From a virus (taxonomy: Duplodnaviria; Caudoviricetes): a DNA stretch of 34,089 nt. The notes below the pieces were generated by a model that had not been told where the DNA came from, ran no database searches, and saw only the letters and a program-made list of their open reading frames with translations. This document shows positions 825 through 27,339 of this stretch, one piece after another. The stretch lies in IMG/VR virus record IMGVR_UViG_3300019996_000004, positions 1 to 34,089 of that record; one strand, 5' to 3'. Positions within the stretch are counted from its first letter, which is position 1. Each line of letters starts with the position of its first letter. The position numbers and the translations under genes are program-made.

Positions 825-2105
825 GTGTCTAATCAACAGCTATTTTCGAATCTTATCGCTCATTCCATGACTGAGTTCATGGAATTAAAAAACCCAATTT
901 ATAACACTTGTAATCGCAAATACGCCAACATGTTCATGCAAAAACAATTTGCAACTGGCGGAAGTATTGATATAAAAATCCCAGGTTACCCATCCACTCA
1001 GACAGGACTTGTCGGCACTGCATCAGACATTCAAGATTTAACGGTGAGCTATACGATTACTGAAGATGACATCATTAGTGTTATTCGTAATTTAAACTCA
1101 GATGAAGCATTGTTTAACATAATCTCAAGCGACAAAGCATTGACTGATCAGCAGCAGAAAGCAATTGTCGATAACTATGGATATCCGGCATATTTGGCGA
1201 TTTCCGCTAAGGTTGAAACGCGCTGCGCAGAACAATTAACCGCAAATGCTTATTACACTCCAATAGATGGCATTGAAAAGCTGAAACCACTTAACAACTA
1301 TGATGCTGTTGCATCCATTGACACAATGGCAGAAGACTTACACTTTTCATCTGATCGTTATCTGATGATGAATACAAAAGATTCTCAACTCGTATCCAGT
1401 TCTCTCCAAAATATGTTTAACCAATCAATAAACGAAAAGATCACAAAGACAGCTCGCATCGGAGGAGCTGAAAAAGGTCGATTGGCAGGGTTCGATTGTT
1501 GGAGATCAACATTTTTAAAACGTCATGTTTCAGGATCAATAAAAGGATTGGCTGGTGTGCAGATCGGAGCAGTTGGCGTAGGCGGCGCAACAATTACGCT
1601 CAAAAACGTTACGGCTTCTTCCGCTGTCTTAATCAACAAGGGCGATTTGATATCCATTCCAAGCGTTTATCTGTGTGACACGATTGATCATACTCAGATT
1701 GGTTGGAGATTGGTTGTCAAAGCTGCTGAAGACGCAAACGGAGACGGCGCAGGAAATGTGTTGGTTACTCTTTCGTATCCTTTGATGGCGTCTGGCGAGC
1801 ACCAGAACGTTATGGCATTACCGGCAATAAACGCACCTGTCGATATTTATCCTGACTATGATCAAAACTATGCTTACGTGCCTTCTGGATTAAGCGTTGT
1901 TGCTCTGAAAATGCCTCCAATTTATGGCGCGGTCAACTCAGACGCAAGCAACCGTGTGGCTAAAGGTAGTGCATCCGCATTTCCTGTTCATGTAACCATG
2001 CAGGGTGCTTCTTTGCAGTTGTCAAACAACTATCGAATATACACTTTGGTAGCGGCAAAGGGTTTTGCTCCTTACATTATATCTGTTCCAAGCGCAAGCC
2101 TATAA
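825..2105 (+). CDS. Major capsid protein, P22 coat-like
   Basis: 426 aa, AGGAG + GTG start, 'NRKY..F..G.SIDIKIP' N-terminal pattern, 'GRLAGFD' motif, position after scaffold, followed by a terminator. Confidence 0.88.
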   Translation: MSNQQLFSNLIAHSMTEFMELKNPIYNTCNRKYANMFMQKQFATGGSIDIKIPGYPSTQTGLVGTASDIQDLTVSYTITEDDIISVIRNLNSDEALFNIISSDKALTDQQQKAIVDNYGYPAYLAISAKVETRCAEQLTANAYYTPIDGIEKLKPLNNYDAVASIDTMAEDLHFSSDRYLMMNTKDSQLVSSSLQNMFNQSINEKITKTARIGGAEKGRLAGFDCWRSTFLKRHVSGSIKGLAGVQIGAVGVGGATITLKNVTASSAVLINKGDLISIPSVYLCDTIDHTQIGWRLVVKAAEDANGDGAGNVLVTLSYPLMASGEHQNVMALPAINAPVDIYPDYDQNYAYVPSGLSVVALKMPPIYGAVNSDASNRVAKGSASAFPVHVTMQGASLQLSNNYRIYTLVAAKGFAPYIISVPSASL

Positions 2106-5089: not shown

Positions 5090-6433
5090 ATGGCGGGCTC
5101 ATACGGAATTTTAAATGTAGACCCATTAGGTTTTAAGTTAGACAAAGAGGTTTCGCCATTTGATAAGGCAATGAGTACCGCAAGTGGACTTTATGATCTC
5201 TTCGGGAAACATTATGAAAATAAGTTGCGGGGTTCTGAGGCTAATCTAAAAAATCTTGAGGCGCAGCAAAAGGCATCTACATTGCCTGGACTTATTGAGT
5301 CTATTAACGCTAAGAGTGCTGCCGACACTAGGTTCTATCCTCAGCAGGAAGAAGCAAAGCTTGGATATACGAGAGCTCAAATAGATGAAGTAATGGCAAA
5401 GACTGGATTAAATCGCGCTGAAGCAACCGCAGCATTCGCGCGTGCAAATTCTTCTAATGCAGAAGCCGGACTTCATAATGCAAATGCTCGTCAAGCAGGA
5501 ATGGGGAAATACGGCGGACTATTAAATGCGTATCAAAATTCCAAGCCAGGTTCTGAAGAATGGAAATACTATGGCGCATTATTGAATAAAGAAATGGGTG
5601 GTTATTCTCCAGGGAATGGAGGAATGACGGGCGGTTCCTCTGCGCGGGGCATCGGTGGTGGAGGGATGTCAGAAGGTGGAATTGAACCTAATCCATTGGG
5701 AGGAGGACCCAGAGCAACCTTTCATCAAGGATTTGACCCAGCAACAGGAGAAACTATCGAATCTCCTACAATGTCATCTGCTACGCGAAATCAGGTTAGG
5801 GTCGAAGCTACTGCCGAATTAAAGAATATGGAGCCCATTATAAACAAAGGATTTTCCCCATATCTAGGGAAGCTCGGGTCAACAAAACTTATGTATGATT
5901 CGGCTCTTGCTGCCTCATCTCCAGATTCAAAGAATGGGCAAGCCGCGGCGCAAAGATTAGAAAACTATAACTTGGCAAGCCGCATGAAACGTGAAGCGGC
6001 GAATATCATATCAAGGCAAACATCAGGGCAGGCTCCAGGCGTTGAAGCTGCCCGCGAACAAGAGCAAGCTAGTTTCGGTAATCTTCCTGGTCAATTTGCC
6101 GGTTCCTTTATTCCTCAAAAAGTCCTTCAGAAAGGAATGGAATCGTACATTCCCGCTCAAGAAAAAATGGCGCAACAAGCTCTTATTCAAGAAAGGCAAG
6201 GATACAAACAAGGGGGTGAACAACCCAGTTGGGCTGGGAATCAACAGCCTAATCAGAGATTTGCATTTGGACAAGAGCCAAGACAACAGCCTCAGGTAGC
6301 TCAAGGATTTAACGGAAATCCAAACTTGCCCGCTCAGCAACAGGAAGGTCAGCAGAATCCTCAAATACAGCAAACCAAAACCGTTGGAAATGATGAGTAC
6401 GTGCAAATTAATGGGCAGTGGTATCACAAATGA
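5090..6433 (+). CDS. DNA ejection protein (gp20 position)
   Basis: 447 aa, Gln/Gly/Ala-rich helical; C-terminal 'KTVG..YVQINGQWY' tag. Confidence 0.6.
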   Translation: MAGSYGILNVDPLGFKLDKEVSPFDKAMSTASGLYDLFGKHYENKLRGSEANLKNLEAQQKASTLPGLIESINAKSAADTRFYPQQEEAKLGYTRAQIDEVMAKTGLNRAEATAAFARANSSNAEAGLHNANARQAGMGKYGGLLNAYQNSKPGSEEWKYYGALLNKEMGGYSPGNGGMTGGSSARGIGGGGMSEGGIEPNPLGGGPRATFHQGFDPATGETIESPTMSSATRNQVRVEATAELKNMEPIINKGFSPYLGKLGSTKLMYDSALAASSPDSKNGQAAAQRLENYNLASRMKREAANIISRQTSGQAPGVEAAREQEQASFGNLPGQFAGSFIPQKVLQKGMESYIPAQEKMAQQALIQERQGYKQGGEQPSWAGNQQPNQRFAFGQEPRQQPQVAQGFNGNPNLPAQQQEGQQNPQIQQTKTVGNDEYVQINGQWYHK

Positions 6434-18634: not shown

Positions 18635-18727
18635 TTAAATAACGCCCCTATTAAGTAAAACCGCAATAACACAAATAAAAATCACAAATCCCCAAATCAA
18701 AATATCTTCCACAGCTTCTCGTTTCAT
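18635..18727 (-). CDS. 30-aa single-TM peptide
   Basis: GGGAGGA RBS; MKREAVEDILIWGFVIFICVIAVLLNRGVI. Confidence 0.55.
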   Translation of the reverse strand: MKREAVEDILIWGFVIFICVIAVLLNRGVI

Positions 18728-18743
18728 AATTCCTCCCATAAAA

Positions 18744-18793
18744 TGGTGGGCATCTTTTAGAAAGATGGTTAAGCTTAAGCCTAATTGATGCCC
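18744..18793 (-). ncRNA. 50-nt tRNA-like minihelix with 3' ACCA
   Basis: GGGCATC...GATGCCC-A-CCA (7-bp perfect stem). Confidence 0.5.
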
Positions 18794-18811
18794 GTAAACT
18801 TTATTAAAAAA

Positions 18812-18945
18812 TGGTGTATCTCGGCGCGAGTCGAACCCACTACGCGTGTCATATCGCCAGTTAGCCCCTGCGGGTTCTTCGCACACATACCGCCCCTGCG
18901 TAATTCTTACGACATCTAGCGTTTCACCGTGAACGCCCGAGATAC
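18812..18945 (-). ncRNA. 134-nt tRNA-like RNA, non-canonical cloverleaf with 3' ACCA
   Basis: GTATCTCGG/CCGAGATAC-A-CCA stem; D-arm-like GCGTT-CACGGTGA-AACGC; GGTTCGACTC T-loop motif; TGTCGTA/TATGACA stem enclosing 54 nt. Confidence 0.7.
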
Positions 18946-18958
18946 ATTTTTTCATCTC

Positions 18959-19222
18959 CTAATTACTGTTTTTTTCATATACTTCCGATGCTTTCTTAAC
19001 TCTTTCATCGAGATTTAATAGTTTAAATTGTTCATATAATGTCAATCCATTAATTTTTGATAGGATTCTTGTATGTTCGATAAGAATTGAAAAAGGTATT
19101 GAAATTCCCATAGATAATTGTTCTCGAGGACAAAATGAAGTAGAATTAAGATTAATTTCTGCCTCCAAAAACTCATCTACATTCTTCGCTATTTCCTGGA
19201 CAAGTTTTTCTTTAATGTCCAT
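18959..19222 (-). CDS. Hypothetical protein
   Basis: 87 aa, TAATG-coupled to csrA. Confidence 0.65.
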   Translation of the reverse strand: MDIKEKLVQEIAKNVDEFLEAEINLNSTSFCPREQLSMGISIPFSILIEHTRILSKINGLTLYEQFKLLNLDERVKKASEVYEKNSN

Positions 19223-19443
19223 TACTTATTCCCACTTGATTCAATTTCCTCCTCAGTCCTCAAAGAATTTTTTATTCTATTTTCTAGTTGAATTTTATTG
19301 TAGATTTCTTCCCTATGGACAGAAACATTTTCTGGTGCGTTTATTCCCACTCTTACTTGAGTTCCTTTTACGCTCAATATCCTAATCTCAATATCATTCC
19401 CTATTACCAATACCTCTCCCACACGTCTCGTTAAAATAAGCAT
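19222..19443 (-). CDS. csrA: Carbon storage regulator CsrA/RsmA homolog
   Basis: [10 protein letters not shown]...[18 protein letters not shown]: near-canonical CsrA including the RNA-binding HRE arginine. Confidence 0.95.
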
Positions 19444-19490
19444 GAAACCTCTCCCCGTTAAAGTTTAGTTAAAATTCCATTGTCCTTTTA

Positions 19491-19558
19491 TGGCGTATCG
19501 CGCGATCGTTTCCATAATGTCATCAGTCAAATCTAAAATAGACGCCGTCACGCGATAC
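19491..19558 (-). ncRNA. 68-nt structured RNA with 3' GCCA upstream of csrA
   Basis: GTATCGCGTGA/TCGCGCGATAC 11-bp stem then G-CCA; same ATGTATC...GATACRCCAT ends as the 134-nt element. Confidence 0.55.
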
Positions 19559-19592: not shown

Positions 19593-20537
19593 TTACTTTG
19601 TTTCTTCTTCTCCAAAGAACTCTTTTGATATTTCTTCTGCTTCTTTTTTTGTTAGGTTATCTAAGTCTTCTTCTTCTTTATTGACATTCTTATTGGCTAA
19701 TTTTTTAGCTAATGATGATGTGCGCGTTTCTTCTGAATTTTTTATAGGCTCATCAGTTTTTGAAAAATTGAAAAAATCCTCTCTTTTGACAACATTGTCT
19801 TTTAATGATCTATAAACCGATCTTAAAGTAATGATTTCATCTTCAATCATTGATTCAAGTTTATGGCCCAGTTTTTCTTCAATATGATTGACTTTTATTC
19901 CAATACCATCAAAAGCCAAAACAAGGTTTCTCACTCTATCTTCAATTGGGTCTGAATTTCCCTCTTTTTGTGTTTTTTTGCACTGATCTTCTGCTGCCTC
20001 TGTAATGTCACCAGGGATGACGGCAAGAATACACGATCTTAATCGTCTTGCCCCTTGATTGGCGACGAGCTCATAAATATCTCGCGGGTCTTTAAGGTCG
20101 TAAGAACCGCTTTTTGTATATCGTTTATGAGTCACTTGAAACTCTTTGATTTCTTCAACATTATTTTCAAGGTCTATGGCAAATGCCTGTACTACTGAAA
20201 CCCCATCAGACTGGCTTATTTCTCTTATCCCAAAGCTCATATTCCCCCAATTCTGGGCTATTACTTCTGCAAGCCTAATTGATGGTCCTGTGACGACTGC
20301 GCCCCCTCTGGGATATGCGTAGATCGCTTTTTCGGCAAGACTTTTTCTCTTGCACGAATTAATTATCTTCGAAAACGCTTCGTTAATATCTCTCGGAAAT
20401 CGCTTCGCCATGATAGAACTAACCTGAACTTTAGACATCGCACGTGACTGTTCTATTTGAACCATATCAGTTGATCTTTGCTGGCTTGAAATAGCACTCA
20501 ATTCATAACTATTACTTACACTTCTTTCTTTGCTCAC
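19593..20537 (-). CDS. Putative single-strand annealing recombination protein
   Basis: 'AKRFPRD...Y.YPRGG..VTGPSIRLAE..A..WGN' phage family, adjacent to the exonuclease; function inferred from context. Confidence 0.6.
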   Translation of the reverse strand: MSKERSVSNSYELSAISSQQRSTDMVQIEQSRAMSKVQVSSIMAKRFPRDINEAFSKIINSCKRKSLAEKAIYAYPRGGAVVTGPSIRLAEVIAQNWGNMSFGIREISQSDGVSVVQAFAIDLENNVEEIKEFQVTHKRYTKSGSYDLKDPRDIYELVANQGARRLRSCILAVIPGDITEAAEDQCKKTQKEGNSDPIEDRVRNLVLAFDGIGIKVNHIEEKLGHKLESMIEDEIITLRSVYRSLKDNVVKREDFFNFSKTDEPIKNSEETRTSSLAKKLANKNVNKEEEDLDNLTKKEAEEISKEFFGEEETK

Positions 20538-22726: not shown

Positions 22727-23059
22727 TTAATTAATTTCCTTCATGCAGTCTTTTAAAACTCTCTCCCAATTGTTGGGAAAACTCTTTTTCAACATTTCAA
22801 GGCTGGACAATTCTTTTTTCTTAGGGATATATTTTTTTAGTTCTCGAGGGTTAACACCCAATATATCTGTTAACTCCAATAGATTTCGTGGGAGCATCCT
22901 TTCACCCGATTCAAGTCGACATAAAGCCGAGGGTGACATCCCAGCTTTAAAGGCTGCTTCTCTCTGCGACAATCCTTTGCTTTCACGTGCTGCCTTAAGA
23001 AACTGTCCTGGAAAGCTATAGTCTTTTGTAGTTAAAGTATATTCATTTTGCTGTCTCAT
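22727..23059 (-). CDS. XRE-family HTH repressor (CI-like, no peptidase domain)
   Basis: 'LKAARE.KGLSQREAA...GMS.S.L.RLESG'; divergent from cro. Confidence 0.85.
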   Translation of the reverse strand: MRQQNEYTLTTKDYSFPGQFLKAARESKGLSQREAAFKAGMSPSALCRLESGERMLPRNLLELTDILGVNPRELKKYIPKKKELSSLEMLKKSFPNNWERVLKDCMKEIN

Positions 23060-23110
23060 AAAGACTCCTTAATATGTATTTTAAATTTTAGAGCAAATGC
23101 AAATTAGAAA

Positions 23111-23268
23111 TGTAAGTATTTGACATTAGTACTTGTAAGCATTTGACGCCATAAACTGTAATCCAATTATGTCTATTTTGTCAACAAGGAATGTTGACAA
23201 CAATCAAACTTATTGTTGAAGCAAAATTGACTTTACAAAATTGACAAAAGGCAATATCCTCTTTTAAT
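23111..23268. promoter_or_regulatory. Switch region: operator-like repeats and rightward promoter candidates
   Basis: TGTAAGYATTTGAC x2 (23111, 23134); TTGTCAACA-AGGAA-TGTTGACAA palindrome (23178-23200); AAAATTGAC x2; TTTACA-17-TATCCT and TTGACA-16-TTTAAT. Confidence 0.6.
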
Positions 23269-23320
23269 GCGTTCATTCGAGCGCATTCACATACTAAACT
23301 TAAAAGAGAGAGTATCCGCC

Positions 23321-23656
23321 ATGCTATTAAATAAACACGATTTCCCGCCTGAAAAACATGCTTTAATTTGCGCTATAAACATCATTGGATGTCCAGCTGA
23401 AGTTGCAAAACAATTGGGTATTGCCAGACAAAATGTTGATCATTGGTTATATCATAGAAAGATTGCTCCACCAGAAAGACATTGTGATCAAATAGAAAAA
23501 GCAACAAAGGGGGTTGTCACAAAAGAAGAGCTTAGACCTGATATTTTCAAAGGAATTCCATCTAAGAAACCAACCTTTAAACAGACAAGGAAAGAGGATA
23601 TAGAGAAGGCGAAGGCTCATATAGCGGCAGCATTAAACTATATTAATGATCTATAG
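23321..23656 (+). CDS. Cro-like (YdaS family) regulator
   Basis: 'AI...G..AEVAK.LGI.RQ.V..W', 'IEKATKG.VT.EELRPDIF'. Confidence 0.88.
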   Translation: MLLNKHDFPPEKHALICAINIIGCPAEVAKQLGIARQNVDHWLYHRKIAPPERHCDQIEKATKGVVTKEELRPDIFKGIPSKKPTFKQTRKEDIEKAKAHIAAALNYINDL

Positions 23657-27129: not shown

Positions 27130-27339
27130 ATGGCTAAATTAAGCGCATCAAAGCGAAGTGCCCTTAAAGATTCAACTTTCGGATTGCCAGGAAGTAGAAA
27201 ATACCCGATGCCTGATAAGAGTCATGCAGCAAATGCGAAAGCACGCGCTACGCAGATGGTTAAGAAAGGTAAACTAAGCGAATCTAGCAAGAACAAGATC
27301 GACGCGAAGGCTAATAAGGTTTTAGGGAAGAAGAAATAA
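27130..27339 (+). CDS. Small basic protein, DUF6582-like
   Basis: 'LS...R..L..S.FGLP..RKYPMPDKSHA.NA.ARA.Q'. Confidence 0.65.
   Translation: MAKLSASKRSALKDSTFGLPGSRKYPMPDKSHAANAKARATQMVKKGKLSESSKNKIDAKANKVLGKKK

Follow-up and report, generated by a model that had tools for sequence, protein, structure and literature searches.

What are the three short elements that lie around a csrA gene on the early strand of this phage, and do they act together? The stretch analysed here (the window, 34,089 nt) represents a complete phage record of 34 kb that has direct repeats at its termini. Its coat is of the P22 type (PF11651 among relatives), and no cultured phage was found to match the coat protein. 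A divergent repressor pair is located at positions 22727-23656, the leftward operon carries recombination genes and small accessory genes, and we infer a temperate life style for this phage. An earlier note on this DNA described three minus-strand elements in that operon, each closed by a terminal stem and followed by purine-CCA, and all three were recovered where it had placed them. In operon order, the features of the region are as follows.

19593..20537, minus strand: 314-aa ORF (phrog_3657), an early-operon gene that lies behind a RecE-like exonuclease and is the neighbour on the upstream side; 78-83% identical in record G002
19558-19491, minus strand: element 1, 68 nt, 11-bp stem (one G-U) followed by GCCA; directly upstream of csrA
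19444..19490, minus strand: leader of csrA, carrying three GGA motifs, one of them the ribosome-binding site
19222..19443, minus strand: CsrA-like regulator of 73 aa (phrog_9500, E 1.7e-28)
18959..19222, minus strand: 87-aa partner ORF, in stop-start overlap with csrA; no PHROG match
18945-18812, minus strand: element 2, 134 nt, nine pairable base pairs followed by ACCA; a tRNA-Sec-shaped 8/5 frame without an anticodon arm
18793-18744, minus strand: element 3, 50 nt, 7-bp stem followed by ACCA
18635..18727, minus strand: 30-aa hydrophobic ORF with its ribosome-binding site 3' of element 3; 74-80% identical in records G001 and G003

The csrA assignment made in the earlier note agrees with the PHROG match. 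The window CsrA is 60-68% identical to gammaproteobacterial proteins, with no clear best match, and by its sequence is of the gammaproteobacterial type. Tandem GGA motifs also occur in the csrA leaders of G001, G002 and G049, which suggests that the phage CsrA possibly controls its own translation. Proteins 28-33% identical to the product of the 87-aa ORF come after csrA in G001 and G002. A 106-aa ORF running across elements 2 and 3 was considered as a gene and rejected: two relatives match its last 30 aa only, and G002 gives a weak 96-aa alignment at 30%. Comparison of the region with cultured phages by blastn returned csrA and chance pieces only. A promoter scan gave 21 sites versus 25.8 expected, none of them at the elements, and the CATTAT of element 1 is TATAAT-like on the opposite strand, with no fitting -35 box seen. 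The terminator scan yielded one weak plus-strand candidate that overlaps the end of element 3 and is within chance. Elsewhere in the window, positions 27130-27339 (plus strand) encode a basic protein of 69 aa, and hundreds of viral contigs have relatives that are 71-82% identical to it.

A single feature of this kind is not rare, as a loose stem-plus-NCCA rule gives 22 rows across the whole window. When each element's own intergenic stretch was shuffled with dinucleotides preserved, a G-started stem of at least the observed length ahead of RCCA turned up in 0/2000, 0/2000 and 2/2000 shuffles for elements 1, 2 and 3, respectively, and three RCCA-ended stems fell inside 900 nt in one of 100 simulated strands. 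Fold z-scores are -3.0 for element 1, -3.0 for element 3 and -0.25 for element 2, the last having been scored one base off. We conclude that the three elements are real, beyond chance. Their 5' ends are also as first read, with G+1 in all three and U-1 in elements 1 and 2, the two larger ones, and C-1 in element 3. The expected lack of a canonical tRNA call was likewise confirmed, with 0 genes found by ARAGORN in the window and 0 Rfam matches at the gathering score; the three matches at E<=10 are unrelated chance hits, and no Rfam family fits the elements.

Relatives of element 2 were collected by several routes. A scan for a terminal stem plus RCCA through 80 phage csrA loci and six upstream-gene loci gave G001, where an RNA of the same build lies directly before csrA. 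The copy in G003 came via a neighbouring protein, that in G004 via a 3'-end pattern, and those in G105 and G106 via a D-arm pattern, while covariance models run on whole records added G002, G049, G059, G008, G012 and G016 together with second and third copies. The resulting family comprises 17 copies of 100-215 nt in 12 phage records, with one to three copies per genome in compact genomes. Narrow patterns recovered the G001 copy only. The 3'-end pattern matched 63 viral loci (three of them family members), five metagenome loci (three already known, one of these being the window itself, and two non-members) and three loci in genomes, where it gave no family member; the D-arm pattern matched at least 119 loci, and among the matches listed five have the full frame. 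Whole-record searches found the family in 1 of 50 and again 1 of 50 records with model R1, and in none of 50 new and 3 of 61 re-searched records with model R2. One copy compared with E. coli genomes and one compared with plasmids gave no match. The family is uncommon within the records searched, many of which are fragments. Our search of literature listings found no description of it, and the supplementary data of PMC5389517 or of large surveys of RNA motifs may hold the frame. Neither ARAGORN with default settings nor Rfam at the gathering score calls any of the scanned copies, and such RNAs would therefore be absent from phage annotations.

Element 2 contains a D-arm (18936-18919) and a T-arm (18840-18824) that were overlooked in the first reading, and its parts in the window are these.

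18938..18945, minus strand: 5' strand of the acceptor stem, 8 nt, pairing with 18823-18816
18919..18936, minus strand: D-arm, GCGTT-CACGGTGA-AACGC; the loop CGGTGA is also in E. coli selC
18841..18918, minus strand: variable insert, which replaces the anticodon and variable arms
18824..18840, minus strand: T-arm with loop TTCGACT; 4/5 pairs in the window copy (one G-G)

The acceptor stem is 8 bp long, its ninth potential pair yielding to the T-stem, and the TTCGACT loop stands 12 nt before ACCA, one more than in an ordinary tRNA. No anticodon-type hairpin was found in the insert of the window copy, and its free fold lacks the T-arm, the stem of which has the G-G mismatch. The possibility that element 2 is an attP remnant was rejected because it has both a D-arm and the 5' strand of the acceptor, and these covary. 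At 18947-18924 on the minus strand, a frame of seven codons (MYLGRSR) preceded by an AGGAG site runs into the 5' end of the element; its conservation was not seen.

The frame recurs throughout the family. RNAalifold, given an unfitted alignment of the first four copies, returned only an 8-bp acceptor, a 5-bp D-stem and a 5-bp T-stem, with compensatory changes in 8 of the 18 pairs. In the model-fitted alignment of all 17 copies, 97.4% of cells pair, compared with 33-42% in slid controls, and 16/18 pairs change on both sides, bearing in mind that such an alignment is biased towards its own structure and that relatedness inflates the shuffle test. All eight acceptor pairs form in 16/17 copies, with covariation at seven of the eight positions, and all five T-stem pairs form in 14/17, so that the 13-bp (8/5) acceptor-T helix characteristic of tRNA-Sec is present. 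Six copies outside the training set of R2 have 48/48 acceptor pairs and 29/30 T pairs, in a setting where the model itself selects for pairing. Most copies carry a 5-bp D-stem with an 8-nt loop able to close further, and the G059 copy has a 6-bp D-stem with a CGGT loop. The homologues and stem covariation that the earlier note proposed to look for are thus at hand for element 2.

This covariation bears on the view that the copies are decaying or junk-filled genes for tRNA-Sec or serine allo-tRNAs, with no present function. In the G059 and G106 copies five arms can still be made out, one hairpin having GCT at its tip, ARAGORN reports a tRNA for the G059 copy when its threshold is lowered, and one copy is degenerate, all of which such decay would explain. 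Compensatory changes run throughout the frame while the inserts differ wholly, however, and one to three copies persist per compact genome. We therefore judge this view highly improbable, and ordinary decaying tRNA genes, which the earlier note had named as a finding that would speak against its proposal, are largely ruled out by the covariation.

The letters of the D-loop and T-loop change jointly, like those of a tRNA elbow. Ten copies combine D-loop GG with T-loop TTCGA, five, which may stem from one event, combine AG with TGCAA, and one has GT with TTAGA; a single degenerate copy (G4b) combines GG with TTAGA and has 3/5 T-stem pairs. In tRNA numbering, we take the three combinations to be G18-U55 plus G19-C56, A18-G55 plus G19-C56, and U19-A56, respectively. 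U54 and A58 are found in 17/17 copies, and the literature search returned no paper on an A18/G55 elbow variant.

Between the D- and T-arms, the copies carry inserts of 42-157 nt, and only 1 of 136 copy pairs is similar at p<=0.01. All inserts can fold into hairpins, and most are no more stable than shuffles (z below -2 in 2/17). Loose candidates for anticodon-like hairpins were seen in 3 of 13 copies tested, in no common place, and none has UCA. Given a conserved frame and unrelated inserts, selection acts on the frame. A search for complements in the same genome, covering 20 elements, found none above chance (lowest p 0.14, same strand), and it would miss split seeds of 6-7 nt. These data can be set against a scaffold role, in which the tRNA frame would protect and release a different small regulatory RNA in each copy, the cargo being swapped by recombination within the conserved frame. 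Near-identical frames around unrelated inserts of 70, 93, 112 and 141 nt in four AG/TGCAA copies are what such a role would produce, as are the ability of every insert to form hairpins and the strong folding of two of them. No insert has detectable relatives, though, and long own-genome complements are missing for the 20 elements, which makes a scaffold role unlikely in our view.

A possible trace of how inserts change is seen in G004 (L169 100-685 and L170 17347-17899), where near-duplicate gene pairs each precede an element-2 copy, and the acceptor stem of these copies is the same. This arrangement suggests that the segment was duplicated and that the inserts then diverged wholly.

The ends of the family members resemble those of an RNase P substrate. 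This enzyme has a preference for A at -2, and A-2 is found in 15/17 copies versus 35% A nearby; G+1 and a pyrimidine at -1 are present in 17/17, the latter being U in 14. Position 73 is A in 15/17 copies and U in two. The contacts of RNase P described in PMC11143913 are U-1, G+1, the T-stem-loop and RCCA. NCCA is encoded in 6/17 copies, and in 3/14 among those found without a CCA-requiring scan, so a host enzyme would have to add CCA in most copies. Absence of conserved stems or RCCA in related genomes was among the outcomes that the earlier note had held to be fatal to its proposal; the stems turn out to be conserved, and CCA is encoded in a minority of element-2 copies.

Elements 1 and 3 are of different kinds. 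At the same place in G002, an orthologue of element 1 has a changed 15-bp stem, the shared loop motif TTTGAYTGRTGRCATTAT and the same A-2 U-1 G+1 start, and it lacks CCA. A candidate in G001 (16 bp, GCCA) was not counted as a sure homologue, having only CATTATA in common and aligning poorly. Element 3 carries the loop motif AAYTARGCTTWDG at 18786-18774 (minus strand), and its relatives in G001, G004 and G106 share this motif within closing stems that differ in sequence yet are paired. NCCA ends 4/4 copies, with A, U, G and C before CCA, two of the three relatives having come from a CCA-requiring scan and the G004 copy not. The motif occurs in 5 of 79 records, where a reversed control matched twice; the fifth of these records (G029) was dropped, since it has neither closing stem nor CCA. 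In three of four records, an element-2 copy is found no more than about 110 nt from element 3. RCCA as a hallmark of the elements, as first claimed, consequently does not stand: CCA is encoded in the minority of element-2 copies just given and is absent from the clear element 1 orthologue, and the bases before CCA in the four element 3 copies are A, U, G and C.

The earlier note had also cited P1 C4 and P4 CI as phage RNAs processed by RNase P. Elements 1 and 3 would be the most plausible members of this class of antisense immunity RNAs, their loops pairing with short targets on the same transcript. The class is compatible with their size and terminal stem, with 5' ends of the RNase P type and with the conservation of loop motifs, and the P1/P7 C4 precursor is an RNase P substrate according to a title cited in PMC11143913. 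The comparisons made here gave the analogy no support: no Rfam C4 family matches at E<=10, no complement exceeds chance in a search blind to split seeds of 6-7 nt, the location is far inside the accessory region rather than at a promoter beside an antirepressor, and the window phage has a protein repressor pair. We consider an antisense immunity function improbable.

Whether the three elements form one system with csrA can be judged from their distribution. A csrA gene is present in 7 of the 12 element-2 records, some of which were found via csrA itself, and absent from five, of which three are rated complete. The place before csrA is taken by element 1 in the window and G002, by element 3 plus an element-2 copy in G001, by an element-2 copy in G003 and G049, and by another structured leader in G004, and it is empty in G059, where the same upstream gene is joined to csrA with no element between. 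The single system around csrA that was originally envisaged is not upheld by these arrangements. By sequence comparison, elements 1, 2 and 3 are instead three separate families that occur in differing combinations, and the cluster in the window is a local grouping, in a hot spot that follows the genes for recombination, rather than a fixed system.

The frequent position beside csrA, together with five GGA motifs in one copy (G4c), could be taken to mean that the RNAs are CsrA-binding sponges that control phage or host CsrA in the manner of CsrB or RsmZ. Window element 2 has no GGA, the 17 inserts together contain 20 where about 29 are expected, and 5/12 records are without csrA, and so we give this idea almost no credence.

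Other structured stretches were seen as well. At L021 (2766-2856, plus strand), an RNA of 91 nt, closed by a stem of 11 bp and ending in ACCA, lies upstream of a prophage csrA, and its sequence is unrelated to the three elements. GC-richer folds with no CCA end occupy the element 2/3 slots at L081 (about 5603-5665, plus strand) and L164 (345-530, plus strand; G002). A hairpin GCCAGT...ACTGGC and, in G001 and G003, a CGGTAGGC...TAAAACC motif occur in early intergenic DNA of four relatives (L162 13579-13554 minus; L167 3383-3359 minus; L254 16497 minus; L256 92 plus) and are absent from the window. This hairpin and this motif are probably further phage RNA motifs.

Among host RNAs, the one closest to the element-2 family by model is tRNA-Sec. 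The family model scores E. coli selC at 20.9 bits, a weak value beside the 34 bits or more of members, and leaves two tRNA-Ser loci unmatched. Conversely, the Rfam tRNA-Sec model (RF01852; gathering score 47) gives the G059 copy 34 bits, the best among five loci, and finds no match at E<=10 for the window copy and none in nine further loci. Shared features are the 8-bp acceptor and 5-bp T-stem, the T-loop TTCGACT and, possibly, the long D-stem with a CGG loop, and the segment GCAGG-TTCGACT-CCTG of the G059 copy is identical to tRNA-Sec letter for letter. The family differs in having no UCA anticodon arm, no conserved variable arm, and A73 (15/17) in place of G73, and the lack of a UCA arm and of G73 led us to reject an assignment to tRNA-Sec itself. 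The pairs named as EF-Tu antideterminants in E. coli tRNA-Sec have not been retained, as the last acceptor pair is G-C in 15/17 copies and the first T pair is G-C in 12/17. In the account of PMC6267555, the 8/5 versus 7/5 branch separates SelB from EF-Tu substrates, and shortening of 8/5 shifts binding from SelB to EF-Tu.

Several other known RNAs share parts of this architecture. Allo-tRNAs and irregular polycistronic tRNAs include examples with a tRNA-Sec-like D-arm, some in phages and some apparently not for translation (PMC5389517). The allo-tRNAs treated there are of the 8/4 or 9/3 type (12 bp) and have anticodons, whereas the element-2 family has 13 bp (8/5) and no anticodon arm, and it was not assigned to them. 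The tRNA-like domain of the TLD-only tmRNA of mycobacteriophage DS6A also lacks an anticodon arm, and a titration role has been suggested for it (PMC4131195). Our family differs from it by an 8-bp acceptor, a true D-stem and the absence of G3-U70 (0/17), pair 3 being C-G in eight copies, A-U in seven and U-A in two. Rfam tmRNA matches the T-arm only (16.6 bits), and with no G3-U70 a tmRNA domain was rejected. [quoted passage not shown] Its acceptor-like stem lies between the arms and its gene beside Ro60, whereas the acceptor of element 2 is formed by the two ends of the RNA. This terminal acceptor, and the finding of PF05731 (TROVE) in 0/9 records, with a control that matched in 2/14, excluded the element-2 family as a Y RNA.

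The closest known kind is represented by rnaC and rnaD of phage T4 (the species 1 and 2 RNAs), which are small stable RNAs of about 120-140 nt (PMC12685909 and PMC3014915). In its fold, the ends of rnaC pair, the T-arm is TTCGAAT and the middle is rich in hairpins; a complete CCA is not encoded. Like rnaC, the predicted element-2 RNAs combine end pairing and a T-arm with a non-decoding middle. However, rnaC lacks a tRNA-Sec-type D-arm and has an imperfect end stem, and the family model matches its 3' part only, at 18.3 bits, a result that leaves sequence kinship not shown. The T4 genes are part of a tRNA cluster in a lytic phage, whereas element-2 copies stand singly or in tandem between the early accessory genes of temperate-type phages of 33-44 kb, and their inserts, unlike the T4 RNAs, are exchangeable.

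What, then, do the elements do? Genomic placement offers some guidance. Eight of 17 element-2 copies begin no more than 15 nt after the upstream stop codon, and 8/17 end no more than 50 nt before the downstream start. The slot varies between phages, with no fixed neighbour gene. Tandem tRNA-like or stem-CCA elements occur in 6/12 records (the window, G001, G004, G008, G105 and G106), one such pair lying at an operon end and facing a convergent gene.

Nearly as likely as the reading we favour below is that the folds act solely in cis, as marks at which RNase P and 3' nucleases split the early transcript, the released RNAs being waste. Cleavage would set the 5' ends of csrA and of the small genes and expose the upstream recombination mRNA to decay. 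On this reading each conserved feature is one that RNase P reads, the unconserved and mostly unremarkable inserts are to be expected, and the structured element directly before csrA in five of the seven csrA-bearing records has an obvious use. There is also a precedent in the t-elements of plant mitochondria, intergenic tRNA-like folds proposed as cut signals for RNase P or Z (PMC1920247). The t-elements are organellar and have no conserved family frame, whereas the element-2 family covaries, belongs to phages and is often tandem. Moreover, tandem elements 5-20 nt apart give no further useful cut, nor would cutting account for a pair at an operon end or for the absence of a fixed neighbour gene. 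A length of 100-215 nt is also great for a cut mark, and a 7/5 helix would suffice, yet 8/5 is kept in 17/17.

The reading towards which we lean, tentatively, is that the elements are stable RNAs released by RNase P that act as tRNA look-alikes, with element 2 serving as a tRNA decoy in trans. RNAs that are themselves the products are favoured because of the tandem copies, the operon-end pair, the shifting positions and the steady 13-bp helix. Since RNase P reads the elbow and T-arm, conservation of the frame is predicted equally by a function in cis. The first part of the proposal, namely transcription with the early operon, RNase P cleavage and 3' trimming or CCA addition, is a prediction from sequence that we consider probable. 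In this scheme, the three elements would be transcribed with the early operon, host RNase P would cut before G+1, and 3' trimming would follow, with a host enzyme adding CCA where it is not encoded. The RNA would not decode, because it has no anticodon arm and its 13-bp helix is poorly suited to EF-Tu. Element 2 RNA would then tie up host proteins that read the top half and elbow of tRNAs, candidate targets, at a guess, being tRNA-attacking defence enzymes or the SelA/SelB pair, and mRNA cleavage would be incidental to element release. Elements 1 and 3 would undergo the same processing and act through their conserved loops. The earlier proposal that the elements are tRNA mimics therefore survives in part: element 2, by its D-arm, T-arm and covariation, is a true mimic, and elements 1 and 3 belong to different families.

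A broader formulation, which we regard as possible though not likely, is that a family of temperate phages uses the tRNA-Sec frame as a swappable chassis, with a translationally inert 13-bp top half and a covarying elbow, that tRNA enzymes of the host would mature and shield, and that this chassis neutralizes tRNA-targeting defences or the Sec machinery, or carries a cargo specific to each copy, beside two families of CCA-ended stem RNAs. Stable phage RNAs without anticodons have been known since T4 rnaC and rnaD, and the element-2 family provides a clean handle on them: its short frame is under strong structural selection, its elbow varies naturally, some copies encode CCA and others do not, and the wholly different inserts let frame and insert be studied apart. 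A tRNA-Sec-like 13-bp frame in phages would point to RNA-based counter-defence against tRNA attack, or to a natural tRNA scaffold.

Further tRNA-like RNAs were encountered during these searches. In G105 (L260 1117-1050, minus strand), a tRNA gene of the 7/5 type, normal in its D- and T-arms, has a 5-nt loop replacing the anticodon loop; it stands third in a tandem row after two element-2 copies and scores 42.7 bits with Rfam tRNA. RNAs of another frame type, tRNA-like, ending in ACCA and with a long insert and an altered T-loop (TTAAACT and TGAAATT), lie 5 nt from an element-2 copy in G004 (L169 3593-3734, plus strand) and G008 (L383 about 1372-1495, plus strand). Other RNAs with an 8/5 acceptor and T-arm and ending in ACCA, with no clear anticodon arm, come from unrelated viral contigs and score 16-25 bits with R2 (L131, L144 and L147, 86-88 nt; L153, 131 nt; L119, 111 nt). 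Finally, tRNAs of about 90 nt with an 8-bp acceptor and a TGTA-type anticodon loop, found on large viral contigs (L096, L100, L104, L105, L110, L117, L118, L123, L129, L136, L138, L139, L142 and L150), are probably 8/4 allo-tRNAs.
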